A DNA stretch of 64,000 bases from a virus. The notes under the pieces are model-generated. The model saw nothing but the letters and a program-made list of their open reading frames with translations. It ran no database searches and was not told the DNA's origin. Below, piece after piece: positions 59,860-64,000 of the stretch; the first letter of the stretch is position 1, and each line of letters starts with the position of its first letter. The stretch spans positions 9,513-73,512 of IMG/VR virus record IMGVR_UViG_3300035156_000198, one strand, 5' to 3'. The translations under genes were made by a program, and so were the position numbers.

Positions 59860-60609
59860 GTGAAAACCGTCGCCCAGACCTACGCCACCGTCCCCGTCGA
59901 CAACCTCACCCCTCACCCCGACAACCCCCGCACCGGGAACGTCGAGGTCATCACCGAGTCAGTCGACGCCAACGGCTTCTACGGTGCGGTGCTGGTGCAG
60001 AAGTCCAGCTCGATGATCGTGGCCGGCGCCCACCGGTGGCAGGCCGCCAAGGCCGCCGGCGCCGCCGAGCTGCCGGTGATCCTGCTGGACGTGGACGACG
60101 CCACCGCCCGGCGCATCGTGCTCGCCGACAACCGCACCAGCGACCTCGCCGGCTACGACTCCAAGGCGCTGACCGAGTGGCTGGCCACCGTCGCCGACGA
60201 CGCCGGCGGCCTGGCCGGCACCGGGTTCAGCGACGACGACTTCGCCGACATGCGCGCCGAGCTCGAAAAGGCATCGTTCGACCCGAGCAAGTACGCCGAC
60301 ACCGAGCCGACCGCCGAGGACCGCGCCGCGGTCGCCGCTGCAGCTGCAGCCGAGGGTGACGACGTGGACCCCGCCGCGAAAGCCGAGCTGGCCCGGTGGA
60401 CCAAGGACGCCGAACGGCTCGACGCGACCCGCCGGCTGCTGGTCATCGACCTGCCCGTGGATCGGTTCGTGTGGGCCGTCGACCAGCTGCGCATCGTGTG
60501 CGAGCGCGAGGGCCTCGCCACGAACGCCGACGCCGTGCTGGCCCTCATCGCCGACTACACCGACACCCCGATCCCGCGGGACCCGACCAAGCGCGGCGCC
60601 GGTGGCTGA
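59860..60609 (+). CDS. ParB/Srx N-terminal domain protein
   Basis: VPVDNLTPHPDNPR...SVDANGFYGAVLV...IVAGAHRWQAAK...LADNRTSDLA. -10 TATCGT 7 nt before the GTG. Confidence 0.85.
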   Translation: MKTVAQTYATVPVDNLTPHPDNPRTGNVEVITESVDANGFYGAVLVQKSSSMIVAGAHRWQAAKAAGAAELPVILLDVDDATARRIVLADNRTSDLAGYDSKALTEWLATVADDAGGLAGTGFSDDDFADMRAELEKASFDPSKYADTEPTAEDRAAVAAAAAAEGDDVDPAAKAELARWTKDAERLDATRRLLVIDLPVDRFVWAVDQLRIVCEREGLATNADAVLALIADYTDTPIPRDPTKRGAGG

Positions 60610-61000
60610 CGTGTTCACGCCGCCGGGCCTGGCCGAGCTGGTCGACCAGGTGACCTACAAGCCTCGGTGGCTGGTCGCCCTGGTCGACGCCGGCGAGCCC
60701 GACGGGTCGGGCGGTCTGGCGCTGCAAATCGTCTCCGACACCGAGGACTCGATGCAGCCCGGGCAACGCACCCGGGTGCGGCACCGGTTCCTGGTGCCGC
60801 CGGCGACCTACAACCGCGACACGTGGGCGGCGTGGCTGTTCGACCGGTTCCGCGATGTCGAGTCCCACGAGGCCGCCGAGTTCTTCCGCATCGACGGCCT
60901 ACGCGAGTTCGCGCCGCACCACTCCAACGGCGAGGACCCCTACCGCGTGTGGCACGTCGGCGACTACGCGACGGCCAGGAAGCGCGCCGGCGATGACTGA
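60602..61000 (+). CDS. Hypothetical protein
   Basis: VTYKPRW...WLFDRFRDVESHEAAEFF...FAPHH. Confidence 0.65.
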   Translation: MADVFTPPGLAELVDQVTYKPRWLVALVDAGEPDGSGGLALQIVSDTEDSMQPGQRTRVRHRFLVPPATYNRDTWAAWLFDRFRDVESHEAAEFFRIDGLREFAPHHSNGEDPYRVWHVGDYATARKRAGDD

Positions 61001-61169
61001 GCACCCGGCCGTAACGCTGCACGGCTCCCTCGACCACGCCGAGGCCGCCGCCTGGTGGTACGAGCGTGCGATGGAGTCGGCCCGCGAGGCCAACGCGCTG
61101 CGCGCCGAGCTGGCAGCGGCACAACGCCGGCGAGGCCTCCGCGGCCTGGTGGGTCGACGCCGCCGATGA
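60993..61169 (+). CDS. Hypothetical coiled-coil peptide
   Basis: 58 aa; overlaps both neighbours. Confidence 0.5.
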   Translation: MTEHPAVTLHGSLDHAEAAAWWYERAMESAREANALRAELAAAQRRRGLRGLVGRRRR

Positions 61170-62038
61170 CCGAGCACGTGCACCACGCACCCCGCGCGCT
61201 GCCACCTGACGACGCTTCGCTGCTGGTCGGCACCCTGGTCGACCGACCCATGGACCCGTCGTTCAAGTCACCCCGCGACGGCGACCACGTGCGCGTGCTC
61301 GACGGCCGAGGGCAGACCCTCGCCCTGGTCACCCGCCTGACACCCGAGCACCGGGCCCGGCTGCGCGACCTGGTGACCGGCATGCGGTTCGGTCAAGACG
61401 TGGGCCGCATCGGCCGCGGCATGTCTCAGGTCGGCGCCGTGTTCGGGTACTCACCGCCGAAGGTCATGGCCCGCCTGGAAGGGTGCCGGTCCACCACGTT
61501 CGGCCGTGACCACCCCGAGGGTCAGCAGCTGCTGACCGAGATAGCCGACCAGCTCGCCGCCGACTTCGCCGAGCTGATGCCCGACCAGGCCGCCCACGAC
61601 CACGACACCATCGACGCCTCGGTGCTCACCGACTGGCGCATGGGCGAGTCCAGCTGGACCAGCGGTGTCATCAACCAGGCCAACCTGTTGCCCTACCACC
61701 GCGACGGGAACAACCTCGATACCTGGTCGGCGATGCCGACCATCAGGCTCGGCATGGACGGCGGCCGGCTGCACCTGCCCGAGTACGACCTAGTGCTGCC
61801 GTGCGGCGACGGCGACGTGACCTGGTTCTACGGCAAGGGCCTGGTCCACGGGGTGACCCCGATGACCCGCCGCCGCCCTGACGCCTACCGCTACAGCCTG
61901 GTGTTCTACGCGCTCAAGGGGATGGTGAACTGCGCGACGTACGCCGAGGAAACCAAGCGCGCGCACGCCCGCCGCACCGCCCGCGAACGCGCCGAGACTG
62001 ACCGCATCCGAGACAAGCTGGCGCTCCCGCCGGCATGA
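61166..62038 (+). CDS. TET/JBP-family 2-oxoglutarate/Fe(II) dioxygenase
   Basis: WTSGVINQANLLPYHRDGNN (HxD), GGRLHLPEY, LVHGVTPM (distal His), RYSLVFY (2OG-binding Arg). Confidence 0.88.
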   Translation: MTEHVHHAPRALPPDDASLLVGTLVDRPMDPSFKSPRDGDHVRVLDGRGQTLALVTRLTPEHRARLRDLVTGMRFGQDVGRIGRGMSQVGAVFGYSPPKVMARLEGCRSTTFGRDHPEGQQLLTEIADQLAADFAELMPDQAAHDHDTIDASVLTDWRMGESSWTSGVINQANLLPYHRDGNNLDTWSAMPTIRLGMDGGRLHLPEYDLVLPCGDGDVTWFYGKGLVHGVTPMTRRRPDAYRYSLVFYALKGMVNCATYAEETKRAHARRTARERAETDRIRDKLALPPA

Positions 62039-62045
62039 TGGCGCC

Positions 62046-62298: not shown

Positions 62299-62565
62299 AT
62301 GGCCACCGTTGCGAACACCCGCCGCCCCCGACGCGACCCCGACTGGACGATCAACCGCCCCACCGACGGCGAGCTGGTCGAGGTCTGGACCTACACCCGC
62401 TCCCGCCGGTCCCGTGATCGAGTCATCGACGGCACCCCCGTCTACGGCACCATCGCCGCCGTCGCCGGCGCCATCACCCACGTGTCGCCCTGCTCGGCGC
62501 GCACACCCGACGCCGCCCTGAACGCCGTCAAGCGCATGTTCGGCGAGGCACCCGCGACCAGCTGA
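62299..62565 (+). CDS. Hypothetical protein, leaderless
   Basis: -10 TAGGCT at 62286-62291, ATG 7 nt later. Confidence 0.55.
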   Translation: MATVANTRRPRRDPDWTINRPTDGELVEVWTYTRSRRSRDRVIDGTPVYGTIAAVAGAITHVSPCSARTPDAALNAVKRMFGEAPATS

Positions 62566-62574
62566 CCCTGTACC

Positions 62575-63366
62575 GTGCGGACCGTGGCCCGTCCGTACAC
62601 CATCGCTGTCCCGTCGAGCAACCGCGCCACCACGTTCCGCGACAAGACCCTGGCCGTACTCATCGCCGGCGGTGTCGACCCCGCCCGCGTCACCGTGTGG
62701 GTGCCCGACCACGACCAGGCCGAGCACTACGACAAGGTGCTCGGCGGCACCGTGCACATCAGGGCCGGCCACGGCCGCGGCGTGCGCCAAGCCCGCAACG
62801 CGATTGCCACCGGCTACCCCACCGGCACCGACCTGGTGTGCCTCGATGACGACATCGCCGGCTTCTACCAGTGCATTGATCGCGAGCAACCCATCGTCCC
62901 GATGACCGACCTCCACGGCTTCATAACCCGCGCAATCGACACCGCCGACGGACACCTGTGGTGCGTCTACCCCGTGGCGAACGCCTACTTCATGCACCCG
63001 ACCCGGGTGCGACGCGGCGGCCTGTGGTACGCCGAGGGCGCCGTCATGGGATGGCGCGTCACCCGCGACTACGACCGCGAGCTGGTCACCCTGGACGACA
63101 AAGAGGACTTCGAGCGGTCATGCCGGTTCTACCTCACCGACGGCGAGGTCGTGCGCTTCGACAGCATCACGTTCAAGAGCCGGTTCTACAAGGAACCCGG
63201 CGGGATGCAGGACTACCGCACCGCCGAGTCGGTCAAGGTCGGCGCGCTGCGCCTGGCCGCGATGTACCCCGACCTGGCCACCGCCTACCGGGCCCGATCC
63301 GGCTGGTGGGAAGTCAGGTTGCGCGACCGCCGCCGCACCCGCCGCCCAGCTCGGGCCACGACATGA
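62575..63366 (+). CDS. GT-A fold glycosyltransferase (TET-associated, TAGT/GREB1-like)
   Basis: IAVPSSNRA, RQARNAI, LVCLDDDI (DxD), DKEDFERS, VVRFD, EPGGMQ. The true start may be the GTG at 62584. Confidence 0.8.
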   Translation: MRTVARPYTIAVPSSNRATTFRDKTLAVLIAGGVDPARVTVWVPDHDQAEHYDKVLGGTVHIRAGHGRGVRQARNAIATGYPTGTDLVCLDDDIAGFYQCIDREQPIVPMTDLHGFITRAIDTADGHLWCVYPVANAYFMHPTRVRRGGLWYAEGAVMGWRVTRDYDRELVTLDDKEDFERSCRFYLTDGEVVRFDSITFKSRFYKEPGGMQDYRTAESVKVGALRLAAMYPDLATAYRARSGWWEVRLRDRRRTRRPARATT

Positions 63367-63992
63367 CCCTGACCGGGCCCATCCTCGCCGTCGGTGCACA
63401 CCCCGACGACGTGGAACTAGGGTGCGCCGCCACCCTCGCCGCCCACCCCGGGTCCACCATCATCACCGCCACCCTCGGCGGCGCACGCGGCACCATCGAC
63501 ACCCGCCGCACCGAAGCCACCGCCGCCGCCGCCGACCTCGGCGCGAGCTGGGCCTGCCTCGGGTTCGATGACCTCGCCGTGCCCGCCGGCCACGAGCTGT
63601 CCCGCGCCGTCGAGCTGCTGGCCTTCCAAGCCCTACCCGCCGTCGTGCTCACCCACTGGCCCGACGACACCCACCCCGACCACCGAGCCGTCGCCCTCGC
63701 CGTCGCCGCCGCATGCCGGCCCGGCGCCGTCACACCCCACGGGTTGCAGCTGGCCTACTTCGAGGGCATCAGCAGCCGCCGGTTCACCCCCGACTGGTAC
63801 GTCACCACCACCACCGCCGACCTCGCCACCGCCACCATCGCCCTAGGCCGCTACCGCTCCCAGCTCGACGGGCCCGTCGACATCGGCGGCTACCTAGCCC
63901 GAGCCGCCTGGCGCGGCAGCCAAGTCCGCACCCCCGCCGCCGACGCCTACGCCATCGGCCGACTCATCACCACCAGCCACGGCACACCGTGA
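63363..63992 (+). CDS. PIG-L/LmbE family de-N-acetylase
   Basis: AVGAHPDDVELG, RRTEA..AAADLG, VLTHWPDDTHPDH, YRSQ; ATGA-coupled to the glycosyltransferase. Confidence 0.9.
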   Translation: MTLTGPILAVGAHPDDVELGCAATLAAHPGSTIITATLGGARGTIDTRRTEATAAAADLGASWACLGFDDLAVPAGHELSRAVELLAFQALPAVVLTHWPDDTHPDHRAVALAVAAACRPGAVTPHGLQLAYFEGISSRRFTPDWYVTTTTADLATATIALGRYRSQLDGPVDIGGYLARAAWRGSQVRTPAADAYAIGRLITTSHGTP

Positions 63993-64000
63993 GACTGGTC
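63989..64000 (+). CDS. Start of the next coupled gene (truncated by window end)
   Basis: GTGA overlap; reads GTG AGA CTG GTC. Confidence 0.3.

Follow-up and report, generated by a model that had tools for sequence, protein, structure and literature searches.

A gene cassette of an actinobacterial phage predicted to build an amino-sugar-modified thymine in DNA: ParB, TET/JBP dioxygenase, TAGT glycosyltransferase, PIG-L deacetylase and P-loop kinase

Mycobacterium phages of the subcluster B5 type (Acadian, Indlovu) and the Arthrobacter phage Altadena share the gene order ParB-TET-TAGT-'glucosaminyl deacetylase', which in part of them is followed by a kinase. This type of cassette is already described: it has been sequenced and annotated in cultured phages, and its product in Acadian was predicted computationally in 2013 to be GlcNAc-5hmU, as cited in a 2014 paper (PMC4111573). 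The ParB-associated dioxygenases of 5mYOX clade C1 are known to convert T to 5hmU, a reaction for which they require their own ParB on dsDNA (PMC13229309; O'Toole et al., PNAS 2026). We found the order ParB-TET-TAGT-PIG-L(-kinase) in 18 cultured actinophage records, among them those of Indlovu (genes 1-5), Acadian and Altadena (genes 60-64), and also in seven metagenomic contigs (L013, L015, L018 and L025 from IMG/VR; L049, L053 and L054 from metagenomes). The cassette ranges over at least Mycobacterium and Arthrobacter phages with a GC content of 49-72%, and in a set of 50,697 phage records both this TAGT subfamily and the deacetylase are present in the same 18 records of actinophages. The public labels of the cassette genes of Indlovu, Acadian and Altadena vary and include 'queuine tRNA-ribosyltransferase', 'oxidoreductase' and 'adenylate kinase'.

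The locus analyzed here comes from a tailed, high-GC actinobacterial phage and lies at the end of the window, i.e., the whole stretch of 64,000 nucleotides under study. Four co-oriented genes had been named in the original prediction for positions 59860-64000, and all four are present on the plus strand in the order ParB-like, TET/JBP dioxygenase, TAGT GT-A glycosyltransferase and PIG-L/LmbE deacetylase. The cluster had also been expected to continue past the window end. Reading the genes after 63989 confirmed this for exactly one gene, a P-loop kinase, and the 74-kb virus record stops 116 bp downstream of it. The features are the following:

59741..59757, plus strand: palindromic element GTCAA-N7-TTGAC, 103 bp ahead of the ParB start codon
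59860..60609, plus strand: ParB-like protein, 249 aa (Pfam ParB_N 34.7 bits, cut-off 26.3; phrog_723 E=1.5e-39)
60602..61000 (start 60602 or 60611), plus strand: small protein, 129-132 aa (phrog_1540 E=4e-24)
60993..61169, plus strand: 58-aa ORF (GC3 0.81)
61166..62038, plus strand: TET/JBP-type Fe(II)/2-oxoglutarate dioxygenase (5mYOX), 290 aa (phrog_6059 E=2.8e-61)
62046..62267, plus strand: lineage-specific 73-aa ORF (GC3 0.96)
62299..62565, plus strand: lineage-specific 88-aa ORF (GC3 0.91)
62575..63366, plus strand: TET-associated glycosyltransferase (TAGT), 263 aa (PF20691 40.6 bits, cut-off 27.5; phrog_25200 E=1.9e-59)
63363..63992, plus strand: PIG-L/LmbE-family zinc de-N-acetylase, 209 aa (PF02585 66.7 bits, cut-off 28.2)
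63989..64546 in window-equivalent numbering (L002:4502-5059), plus strand: P-loop kinase (Ploopntkinase3), 185 aa (PF18751 67.6 bits, cut-off 27)

The four genes named in the prediction have a GC3 of 0.91-0.94. Several cassette genes overlap their neighbours; TAGT and PIG-L do so by ATGA, PIG-L and the kinase by GTGA. Identities to the Indlovu/Acadian-type and Altadena genes amount to 40-57% for the TET enzyme, 41-57% for the TAGT, 39% for the kinase and 30-31% for the PIG-L, which is unusually divergent here. Unlike in these three phages the cassette is far from the terminase genes (about 13 kb), at the record's right-hand end, and is interrupted by four additional, lineage-specific small ORFs, not listed in the original prediction, for none of which a homologue was found in the other cassettes. 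The gene at 60602..61000, which has no Pfam match, is an insert outside the conserved cassette; homologues of its product occur in 175 Mycobacterium phage records, and the listed ones are not linked to a TET gene. The ORF at 60993..61169 overlaps the end of the preceding gene and with its stop the TET start (ATGA), is without match in Pfam and PHROG, and is uncertain as a real gene. The two ORFs between dioxygenase and TAGT likewise have no Pfam or PHROG match. The palindrome upstream of the ParB gene is present in five exact copies in the window (0 expected from 100 shuffles) and is possibly an operator or promoter element heading the module; a search for a sigma-70 consensus promoter did not find one.

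The dioxygenase starts with an ATG at 61166 inside a longer ORF which opens at 61055. As anticipated, the HxD...H...R motif is intact: H178-x-D180, H228 and R242 as well as C256 are invariant in 68 homologues. The suggested HMM searches were positive for the transferase and the deacetylase, whereas the dioxygenase scored slightly below the curated cut-off of PF12851 (Tet_JBP; 31.2 versus 34.9 bits) and was recognized by its PHROG family. The AF2 model (pLDDT 91.6) has a helix at residues 256-284, and a helical extension beyond C256 is conserved. The prediction had allowed for a grouping with 2OG enzymes not acting on nucleic acids; in a Foldseek search against the PDB the best 26 matches of the model are all TET-family proteins (CcTet, NgTET1, TET2, CMD1; E 1e-11 to 8e-9), with AlkB/FTO ranking behind them at about 1e-6. 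As modelled, the fold groups with the DNA-acting TET enzymes, and the protein is predicted to be a thymine C5-methyl hydroxylase acting on DNA.

The adjacent ParB-like protein consists of an N-terminal CTPase-type nucleotide-binding domain, a short helical segment, an acidic Ala/Pro-rich linker and a conserved C-terminal domain. [quoted passage not shown] In an alignment with six cassette ParBs the residues N22/R24/G26, A55-G56-x-H58 and N91 and the C-terminal block are kept. We predict that this protein is the activator of the dioxygenase.

Whether the substrate is thymine or 5mC had been left open in the original prediction, and the evidence now favours thymine. Neither a C5-methyltransferase (PF00145), which had been considered possible beyond position 64000, nor a thymidylate-synthase-like (ThyA-like) gene was found in the 74-kb record, and the genomes of Indlovu and Altadena, both complete, have no C5-methyltransferase gene either. 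Only 6% of the 5mYOX neighbourhoods contain a C5-methyltransferase gene (PMC13229309). It is nevertheless conceivable that 5-methylcytosine comes from a methyltransferase of the host or from a phage gene absent from the record, and that the product is glycosylated 5hmC as in metaviromic MT/TET/GT clusters. Phage TETs of clades A and B do oxidise 5mC and feed glycosyltransferases (PMC8256090), the record is rated 86% complete and the contig L013 has a C5-methyltransferase gene about 5 kb from its cassette. However, for the ParB-associated enzymes of clade C1 a lack of activity on 5mC was reported in 2021 (PMC8256090) and activity on T in 2026 (PMC13229309). Moreover, the record seems to lack little of the genome, because an identical copy of the dioxygenase is found on a second contig of 74,570 bp. 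We regard the chance of a 5mC substrate as very slight indeed. With no C5-methyltransferase present and thymine as the known target of ParB-associated dioxygenases, the series of products is likely to be T -> 5hmU -> GlcNAc-5hmU -> GlcN-5hmU.

The second and third enzymes fit the enzymes named beforehand. The TAGT has the expected DxD motif as D91-D92-D93 (D91 and D92 invariant, D93 at least 90% in 72 homologues) and is modelled by AF2 with a GT-A fold (pLDDT 95.8). In the PDB the model matches GT-A enzymes, of which many transfer HexNAc (POMGnT1, ppGalNAc-T, TarS, TarP), and its viral matches are TAGT proteins and a T-even-type beta-glucosyl-HMC-alpha-glucosyltransferase (TM 0.72-0.82). The deacetylase retains the conserved motifs H12-P-D-D15 and D101-T-H103-x-D105-H106, of which H12, D14, D15, H103, D105 and H106 are shared with the Indlovu and Altadena homologues. 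Its profile matches the solved structures of TT1542, BshB, diacetylchitobiose deacetylase and Dbv21, and these solved relatives all deacetylate GlcNAc that is already joined to an aglycone. The TAGT is predicted to move GlcNAc onto the 5-hydroxymethyl group, with the choice of sugar based on the deacetylase neighbour and the fold neighbours of the model, and the PIG-L is predicted to turn the GlcNAc adduct into glucosamine.

All tests that were run support a sugar-modified pyrimidine made after replication by TET, TAGT and deacetylase with a ParB companion, as originally proposed. We propose a post-replicative thymine hypermodification operon working in four steps, and assign to this explanation as a whole, including the shielding of the DNA, a probability of roughly 0.7. 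Judging from family membership and the published biochemistry of its relatives, the dioxygenase, switched on by the adjacent ParB, would hydroxylate the C5-methyl group of thymine in double-stranded phage DNA to 5-hydroxymethyluracil. The TAGT would then pass N-acetylglucosamine from UDP-GlcNAc to the hydroxyl group of 5hmU. Given the invariable chemistry of PIG-L/LmbE enzymes, the zinc deacetylase would strip off the acetyl group and leave glucosamine whose free amine is partly protonated, i.e., an amino-sugar analogue of base J. In the least certain step the translationally coupled kinase may phosphorylate leftover 5hmU or the adduct.

Alternatively, glycosyltransferase and deacetylase could have a substrate other than DNA (a precursor of the host envelope, a small molecule akin to mycothiol or a protein of the virion), their neighbourhood to the TET gene being fortuitous. 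MshB is the PIG-L enzyme of actinobacterial mycothiol synthesis, a TET gene is absent from 34 of the 38 viral PIG-L loci fetched, and by sequence identity (36-40%) this PIG-L is nearest to proteins from bacterial polysaccharide or glycoconjugate loci. Yet the synteny TET-TAGT-PIG-L holds without a break at no fewer than 10 independent loci and in the 18 cultured-phage records, the cassette genes are translationally coupled, the TAGT family is defined by its TET association and its fold here most resembles viral TAGT proteins and a T-even-type DNA glucosyltransferase, so that we hold a target other than DNA to be very unlikely.

The kinase has the Walker A motif GVPGAGKT. It shares 30-39% identity with its counterparts in Indlovu, Wooper and Kharcho, and 20% with M6 gp54, the validated 5-hmdU DNA kinase, which is of the separate family PF18748. 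It could also act earlier than in our scheme, phosphorylating 5hmU like 5-HMUDK, with the GT-A enzyme then attaching the sugar to the phosphate in the manner of polyprenyl-phosphate GT-A enzymes; or it could phosphorylate the sugar. Both routes would give a phospho-amino-sugar thymine. Its translational coupling to the deacetylase would fit such a role, as would the recurrent core ParB-TET-kinase (Julie1, Kharcho), in which either an amino-acid:DNA transferase (Wooper) or TAGT and PIG-L (Indlovu) lie between TET and kinase, and SP-15-like phages have phospho-sugar thymine adducts (PMC12686479). We consider this quite unlikely: TAGT-type enzymes need no kinase to glycosylate 5hmC, acting on it directly (PMC8256090), and this kinase family is found without TET in hundreds of phages (353 phage records for the kinase versus 95 for the dioxygenase), as in Basato, where the kinase precedes the terminase without ParB or TET. 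Several metagenomic loci and Altadena-type phages have TET-TAGT-PIG-L without such a kinase; because none was found with the Altadena cassette, the kinase may even lie outside the pathway.

In the proposed operon the bulky, charge-bearing base would most likely shield the DNA from restriction and CRISPR nucleases, and may also ease packaging. The same chemistry could instead set a sparse, sequence-specific mark connected with the packaging of DNA or the timing of genes. Many relatives have the cassette directly upstream of the terminase genes, and the ParB-dependent enzymes oxidised only part of T with an NTR preference, for which the authors raise an epigenetic-like role (PMC13229309); this partial, sequence-selective oxidation fits marking as well as shielding. 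In the present phage, however, cassette and terminase genes are well separated, and all characterised phage thymine hypermodifications protect against restriction (PMC8989533), so that marking in place of bulk protection appears unlikely.

Compared with known systems, the locus resembles in its architecture clade C1 5mYOX176/ParB176 (PMC13229309). Both have an adjacent ParB made up of nucleotide-binding domain, linker and C-terminal domain without a DNA-binding domain, the dioxygenase is extended C-terminally after the last conserved Cys as in the ParB-dependent subclass, and as in clade C1 loci a neighbouring C5-methyltransferase is lacking and the hypermodification neighbours include P-loop kinases and glycosyltransferases; a deacetylase and an amino-sugar product are, however, unmentioned in the main text of that paper. 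With the base J system of kinetoplastids (JBP1/2 and JGT) the proposed pathway shares the hydroxylation of DNA thymine by a TET/JBP enzyme and the subsequent O-glycosylation, but base J carries glucose, involves no deacetylation, ParB or kinase and serves in eukaryotic transcription control. The arrangement of M6, ViI, PaMx11 and the Gordonia phage Wooper (5-hmdU DNA kinase and amino-acid:DNA transferase) has in common the 5hmU hub, a P-loop kinase and primary-amine end products. In M6 and ViI, however, 5hmU arises prior to replication, the role of transferase falls to an aGPT-Pplase and not to a glycosyltransferase, and the validated kinases are of PF18748 instead of PF18751. The logic of the sugar steps is that of MshA/MshB, BshA/BshB (BshB being among the best solved matches of this PIG-L) and PIG-A/PIG-L, in which GlcNAc is first attached by a glycosyltransferase to a hydroxyl group of the acceptor, after which a zinc enzyme of the PIG-L/LmbE family frees the amine; their acceptors are inositol, malate and phosphatidylinositol, whereas here the acceptor would be a base in polymeric DNA.

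The window was taken from a single virus record of 74,174 bp with 72% G+C, of which it covers bases 9513-73512. The record is linear according to its IMG/VR class and 86% complete according to CheckV. Since an identical copy of the dioxygenase is also found on a 74,570-bp contig from another assembly, the record appears to lack little of the genome. The right end of the record (...GGCCTT, L002:5170-5175, L002 being the right part of the record) and its start (GCCTTG, L001:1-6, in the left part) overlap by five bases. Gene calling by third-position GC gave the typical layout of a tailed phage, the genes for terminase, portal and tail lying around 3.3-24 kb of the window. 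The cassette occupies the right-hand end of the record, and from 59860 up to the record end every gene lies on the plus strand with a GC3 of 0.81-0.96.

Genes from position 59860 of the window to the end of the record, with the supporting evidence
59860-60609, plus strand, ParB-like protein (Pfam ParB_N 34.7 bits; phrog_723 E=1.5e-39)
60602/60611-61000, plus strand, phrog_1540 protein (phrog_1540 E=4e-24)
60993-61169, plus strand, ORF of 58 aa (sequence only)
61166-62038, plus strand, TET/JBP dioxygenase (motifs, AF2 fold, PF12851 31.2 bits)
62046-62267, plus strand, ORF of 73 aa (GC3 0.96)
62299-62565, plus strand, ORF of 88 aa (GC3 0.91)
62575-63366, plus strand, TAGT glycosyltransferase (PF20691 40.6 bits, cut-off 27.5)
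63363-63992, plus strand, PIG-L deacetylase (PF02585 66.7 bits, cut-off 28.2)
63989-64546 (L002:4502-5059), plus strand, P-loop kinase extending past the window (PF18751 67.6 bits)

Start and stop codons overlap in an ATGA between the 58-aa ORF and the TET gene, in a second ATGA between the TAGT and PIG-L genes and in a GTGA between the PIG-L and kinase genes. The gene cluster behind the original prediction of a DNA hypermodification pathway is real and was correctly read from the sequence, and the motifs reported there for the dioxygenase, the transferase and the deacetylase are conserved in the alignments of the homologues. The prediction also held that the cluster continues past the window. 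Reading the genes after 63989 we find one P-loop kinase of the PF18751 family, whose gene ends 116 bp before the end of the record. The palindrome GTCAA-N7-TTGAC is present in five exact copies (window 1717, 13599, 24372, 39339 and 59741) with 0 expected in shuffles, and the copy at 59741 precedes the ParB start by 103 bp. These palindromes may be operators or promoter elements marking module boundaries.

Not all genes of this region seem to belong to the pathway. None of the other cassettes compared has a counterpart of the phrog_1540 protein or of the three small ORFs, which were therefore rejected as pathway members and are lineage-specific inserts. Homologues of the phrog_1540 protein occur in 175 Mycobacterium phage records, and among the matches listed their positions are unrelated to any TET gene. 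Gene 73 of the comparison phage Kharcho was considered as a further homologue and dismissed as not homologous. In a concatemer the kinase would be followed by the left 9.5 kb of the record; this part codes for a caspase-like peptidase, a GH25 lysozyme, an HNH-like protein and several unknown products, and DNA-modification genes were not found in it. The caspase-domain gene (Peptidase_C14, E=2e-21; L001:2631-4318, corresponding to genome 2631-4318 to the left of the window) lies directly upstream of the GH25 lysozyme/endolysin gene, a pairing which is unusual for a phage.

The dioxygenase scores 31.2 bits against Tet_JBP (PF12851) and stays below the curated gathering threshold of 34.9. A public protein collection lists a precomputed PF12851 match for the identical protein and for the majority of its 658 homologues. 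As the score is just under the cut-off, we examined the fold with an AF2 model based on the alignment of 68 homologues (pLDDT 91.6). The best 26 Foldseek matches in the PDB are all TET-family enzymes (CcTet, NgTET1, TET2 and CMD1, E 1e-11 to 8e-9), and AlkB/FTO rank behind them at ~1e-6. By this comparison the jelly-roll fold is nearer to the nucleic-acid TET enzymes than to other 2OG oxygenases, and the grouping with non-nucleic-acid 2OG enzymes that the original prediction had named as speaking against it was not observed, TET enzymes taking ranks 1-26. The sequence profile matches, weakly, NgTET1 and TET2 alone among the solved structures. The Fe(II) triad H178-x-D180 and H228 and the 2-oxoglutarate-binding R242 are invariant in the 68 homologues. 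C256 is also invariant, with conserved A260, E262, R270, R273 and E274 beyond it, and the AF2 model predicts that residues 256-284 form a long helix. It has been reported that, among these dioxygenases, only the ParB-dependent ones have a C-terminus prolonged beyond their last conserved cysteine (PMC13229309), and the dioxygenase studied here has this extension after C256, as in the ParB-dependent subclass. PHROG 6059 and many records label the TET/JBP dioxygenase misleadingly as 'queuine tRNA-ribosyltransferase'.

The original prediction noted no C5-methyltransferase in the window and left the choice between thymine and 5mC. This absence extends to the whole 74-kb record, in which neither a C5-cytosine methyltransferase (PF00145) nor a thymidylate-synthase-like gene is present. 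PF00145 is also absent from the complete genomes of the Mycobacterium phage Indlovu and the Arthrobacter phage Altadena, both with the same cassette. The lack of an associated C5-methyltransferase is a feature of the ParB-dependent T-dioxygenase subclass. It has been reported that a C5-methyltransferase is found in only 6% of the neighbourhoods of 5mYOX (TET/JBP-type) dioxygenases, the authors inferring that most of these enzymes make 5hmU (PMC13229309). On the missing methyltransferase and ThyA-like genes, the two methyltransferase-free phage genomes and the 6% figure, thymine is strongly favoured as the substrate, whereas 5mC supplied by the host appears very improbable. A possible exception, in which 5mC could serve as substrate, is an IMG/VR record of 58,047 bp and 49% GC (L013), which carries the full ParB-TET-TAGT-PIG-L cassette and, ~5 kb from it on the other strand, a C5-cytosine methyltransferase.

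With thymine as the favoured substrate, the glycosyltransferase, whose gene starts 537 bp beyond the end of the TET gene, would act on 5hmU. This protein and the deacetylase score above the cut-offs of PF20691 and PF02585, respectively. The transferase has a TET gene as neighbour and a DxD-type motif, D91-D92-D93, which is conserved in 72 homologues, and its AF2 model (pLDDT 95.8) has a GT-A fold. A fold search was needed because the alignment profile gave only noise against the PDB sequences. Solved fold neighbours include the HexNAc transferases POMGnT1, ppGalNAc-T2, TarS and TarP; the viral ones, with TM 0.72-0.82, are TAGT-domain proteins as best matches and a T-even-type beta-glucosyl-HMC-alpha-glucosyltransferase. 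We infer the donor sugar, and 5hmU in DNA as acceptor, from the PIG-L neighbour and the HexNAc-transferase fold neighbours only.

The deacetylase contains the sequence AHPDD at residues 11-15 and the motif H103-P-D-H106. Its profile matches among solved structures are TT1542, BshB, diacetylchitobiose deacetylase and Dbv21, all of which strip the N-acetyl group from aglycone-linked GlcNAc. In the MshA/MshB, BshA/BshB and PIG-A/PIG-L pathways GlcNAc is attached first and then deacetylated. The corresponding step here would be the conversion of GlcNAc-5hmU to GlcN-5hmU.

The strongest evidence for a coupling of the sugar steps comes from sequence comparison, namely from the recurrence of the cassette. 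In a set of 50,697 phage records, this TAGT subfamily and the deacetylase are found in an identical group of 18, all of them from actinophages (12 of Mycobacterium, 6 of Arthrobacter), and the Mycobacterium phage Acadian is among the carriers of the same cassette. Four IMG/VR contigs, one of them of 49% GC, and three metagenomic contigs show the gene order ParB-TET-TAGT-PIG-L as well. More distant TAGT homologues are found without PIG-L, and the TAGT/PIG-L pair therefore defines a subclade. A TAGT homologue with 37% identity is encoded on a giant-virus-like JGI contig of 477,566 bp (L051), where the gene for an NCLDV major capsid protein lies at a distance of 1 kb and one for Tet_JBP within 6 kb. 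The Amidoligase_2 family has been described in thymidine hypermodification clusters; in a metagenomic relative with TET and TAGT genes but no PIG-L gene an Amidoligase_2 gene lies nearby (L055:6270-7067), which hints at a further variant.

Ranked by identity, the deacetylase is closest to genes from polysaccharide-type loci of bacteria (36-40%), and its identity to the Indlovu and Altadena enzymes is only 30-31%. Because of these bacterial matches we considered an independent capture of the gene from an actinobacterium. This was not supported, as a single clade of the window protein and the cassette enzymes was not rejected (AU test, p=0.21). Long branches dominate the trees; in the one of 95 rows a starred branch unites the window PIG-L with the PIG-Ls of all cassettes and sets them off from the main clade of bacterial proteins.

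On the boldest reading, to which we give a probability of roughly 0.45, the virion DNA would carry 5-(2-amino-2-deoxy-hexosyl-oxymethyl)uracil, an analogue of base J with a cationic amino sugar, which the kinase may phosphorylate or whose free amine may be extended. If this reading is true, a de-N-acetylase would act on polymeric DNA. To our knowledge such an activity has not been reported for the PIG-L/LmbE family, nor has this base ever been shown chemically as a natural one.

The kinase itself matches PF18751 (Ploopntkinase3) with 67.6 bits and has no match to PF18748, and hence does not qualify as a member of HMUDK_HMUD1. The validated 5-hmdU DNA kinase M6 gp54 matches PF18748; ViI gp67 also belongs to the validated family. 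The kinase is 20% identical to M6 gp54, Walker A and an E-G motif being common to both. It may nevertheless act in the manner of a 5-HMUDK, to judge from the gene neighbourhood of a PF18751 kinase in the Gordonia phage Wooper. A role in the pathway is suggested by its translational coupling to the deacetylase and by ParB-TET-kinase being a recurrent core, for example in the phages Julie1 and Kharcho. In addition, the PF18751 kinase of the Gordonia phage Wooper adjoins an aGPT-Pplase2 amino-acid:DNA transferase, and transferases of the aGPT-Pplase type are the classic partner of the 5hmU kinase (PMC8989533). Against such a role, the kinase is found in 353 phage records and the dioxygenase in 95, that is ~260 fewer; in the Mycobacterium phage Basato (L047) the kinase is gene 1 beside the terminase, and the adjoining end carries neither ParB nor TET; and Altadena lacks such a kinase although the cassette is present. 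We consider it somewhat probable that the kinase takes part in the pathway. M6 gp54 (L046:86-649, in the locus of the Pseudomonas phage M6) is labelled misleadingly as 'terminase small subunit' by RefSeq, and the actinophage PF18751 kinases are misleadingly given the same name by PHROG 800 and RefSeq.

The idea of the cassette is already known. TAGT was defined in 2013, and SEA-PHAGES records already carry the labels 'Tet-like J-binding protein', 'glycosyltransferase' and 'glucosaminyl deacetylase'. No report of the deacetylation step or of the final base was found in the literature searched. If the prediction is true, actinobacterial phages, including easily grown phages of Mycobacterium smegmatis and Arthrobacter, put an amino sugar on thymine. 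The natural DNA bases would then gain one more member and the PIG-L enzymes a new class of substrates, and odd behaviour of these phage DNAs in restriction, sequencing or engineering would be explained. The value of the window lies mainly in correct annotation, the public labels 'queuine tRNA-ribosyltransferase', 'adenylate kinase' and 'terminase small subunit' being misleading, and the range of the cassette is shown to extend to a Streptomyces-like phage lineage of 72% GC.

The gene for the ParB-like protein precedes that of the dioxygenase within one operon. Of this protein, the NBD alone matches Noc/ParB structures; according to the alignment the rest consists of a short helical segment, a linker that is acidic and rich in Ala and Pro, and a C-terminal block that is conserved, and no HTH domain was detected. 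A co-located ParB with NBD and CTD and without a DNA-binding domain is characteristic of the ParB-dependent T-dioxygenase subclass. The pairing of ParB and dioxygenase has been shown by experiment in 2025-2026 (PMC13229309). The architecture found here is that of ParB176 (O'Toole et al., PNAS 2026, PMC13229309), the activator which the clade C1 dioxygenase 5mYOX176 requires to oxidise thymine in double-stranded DNA.
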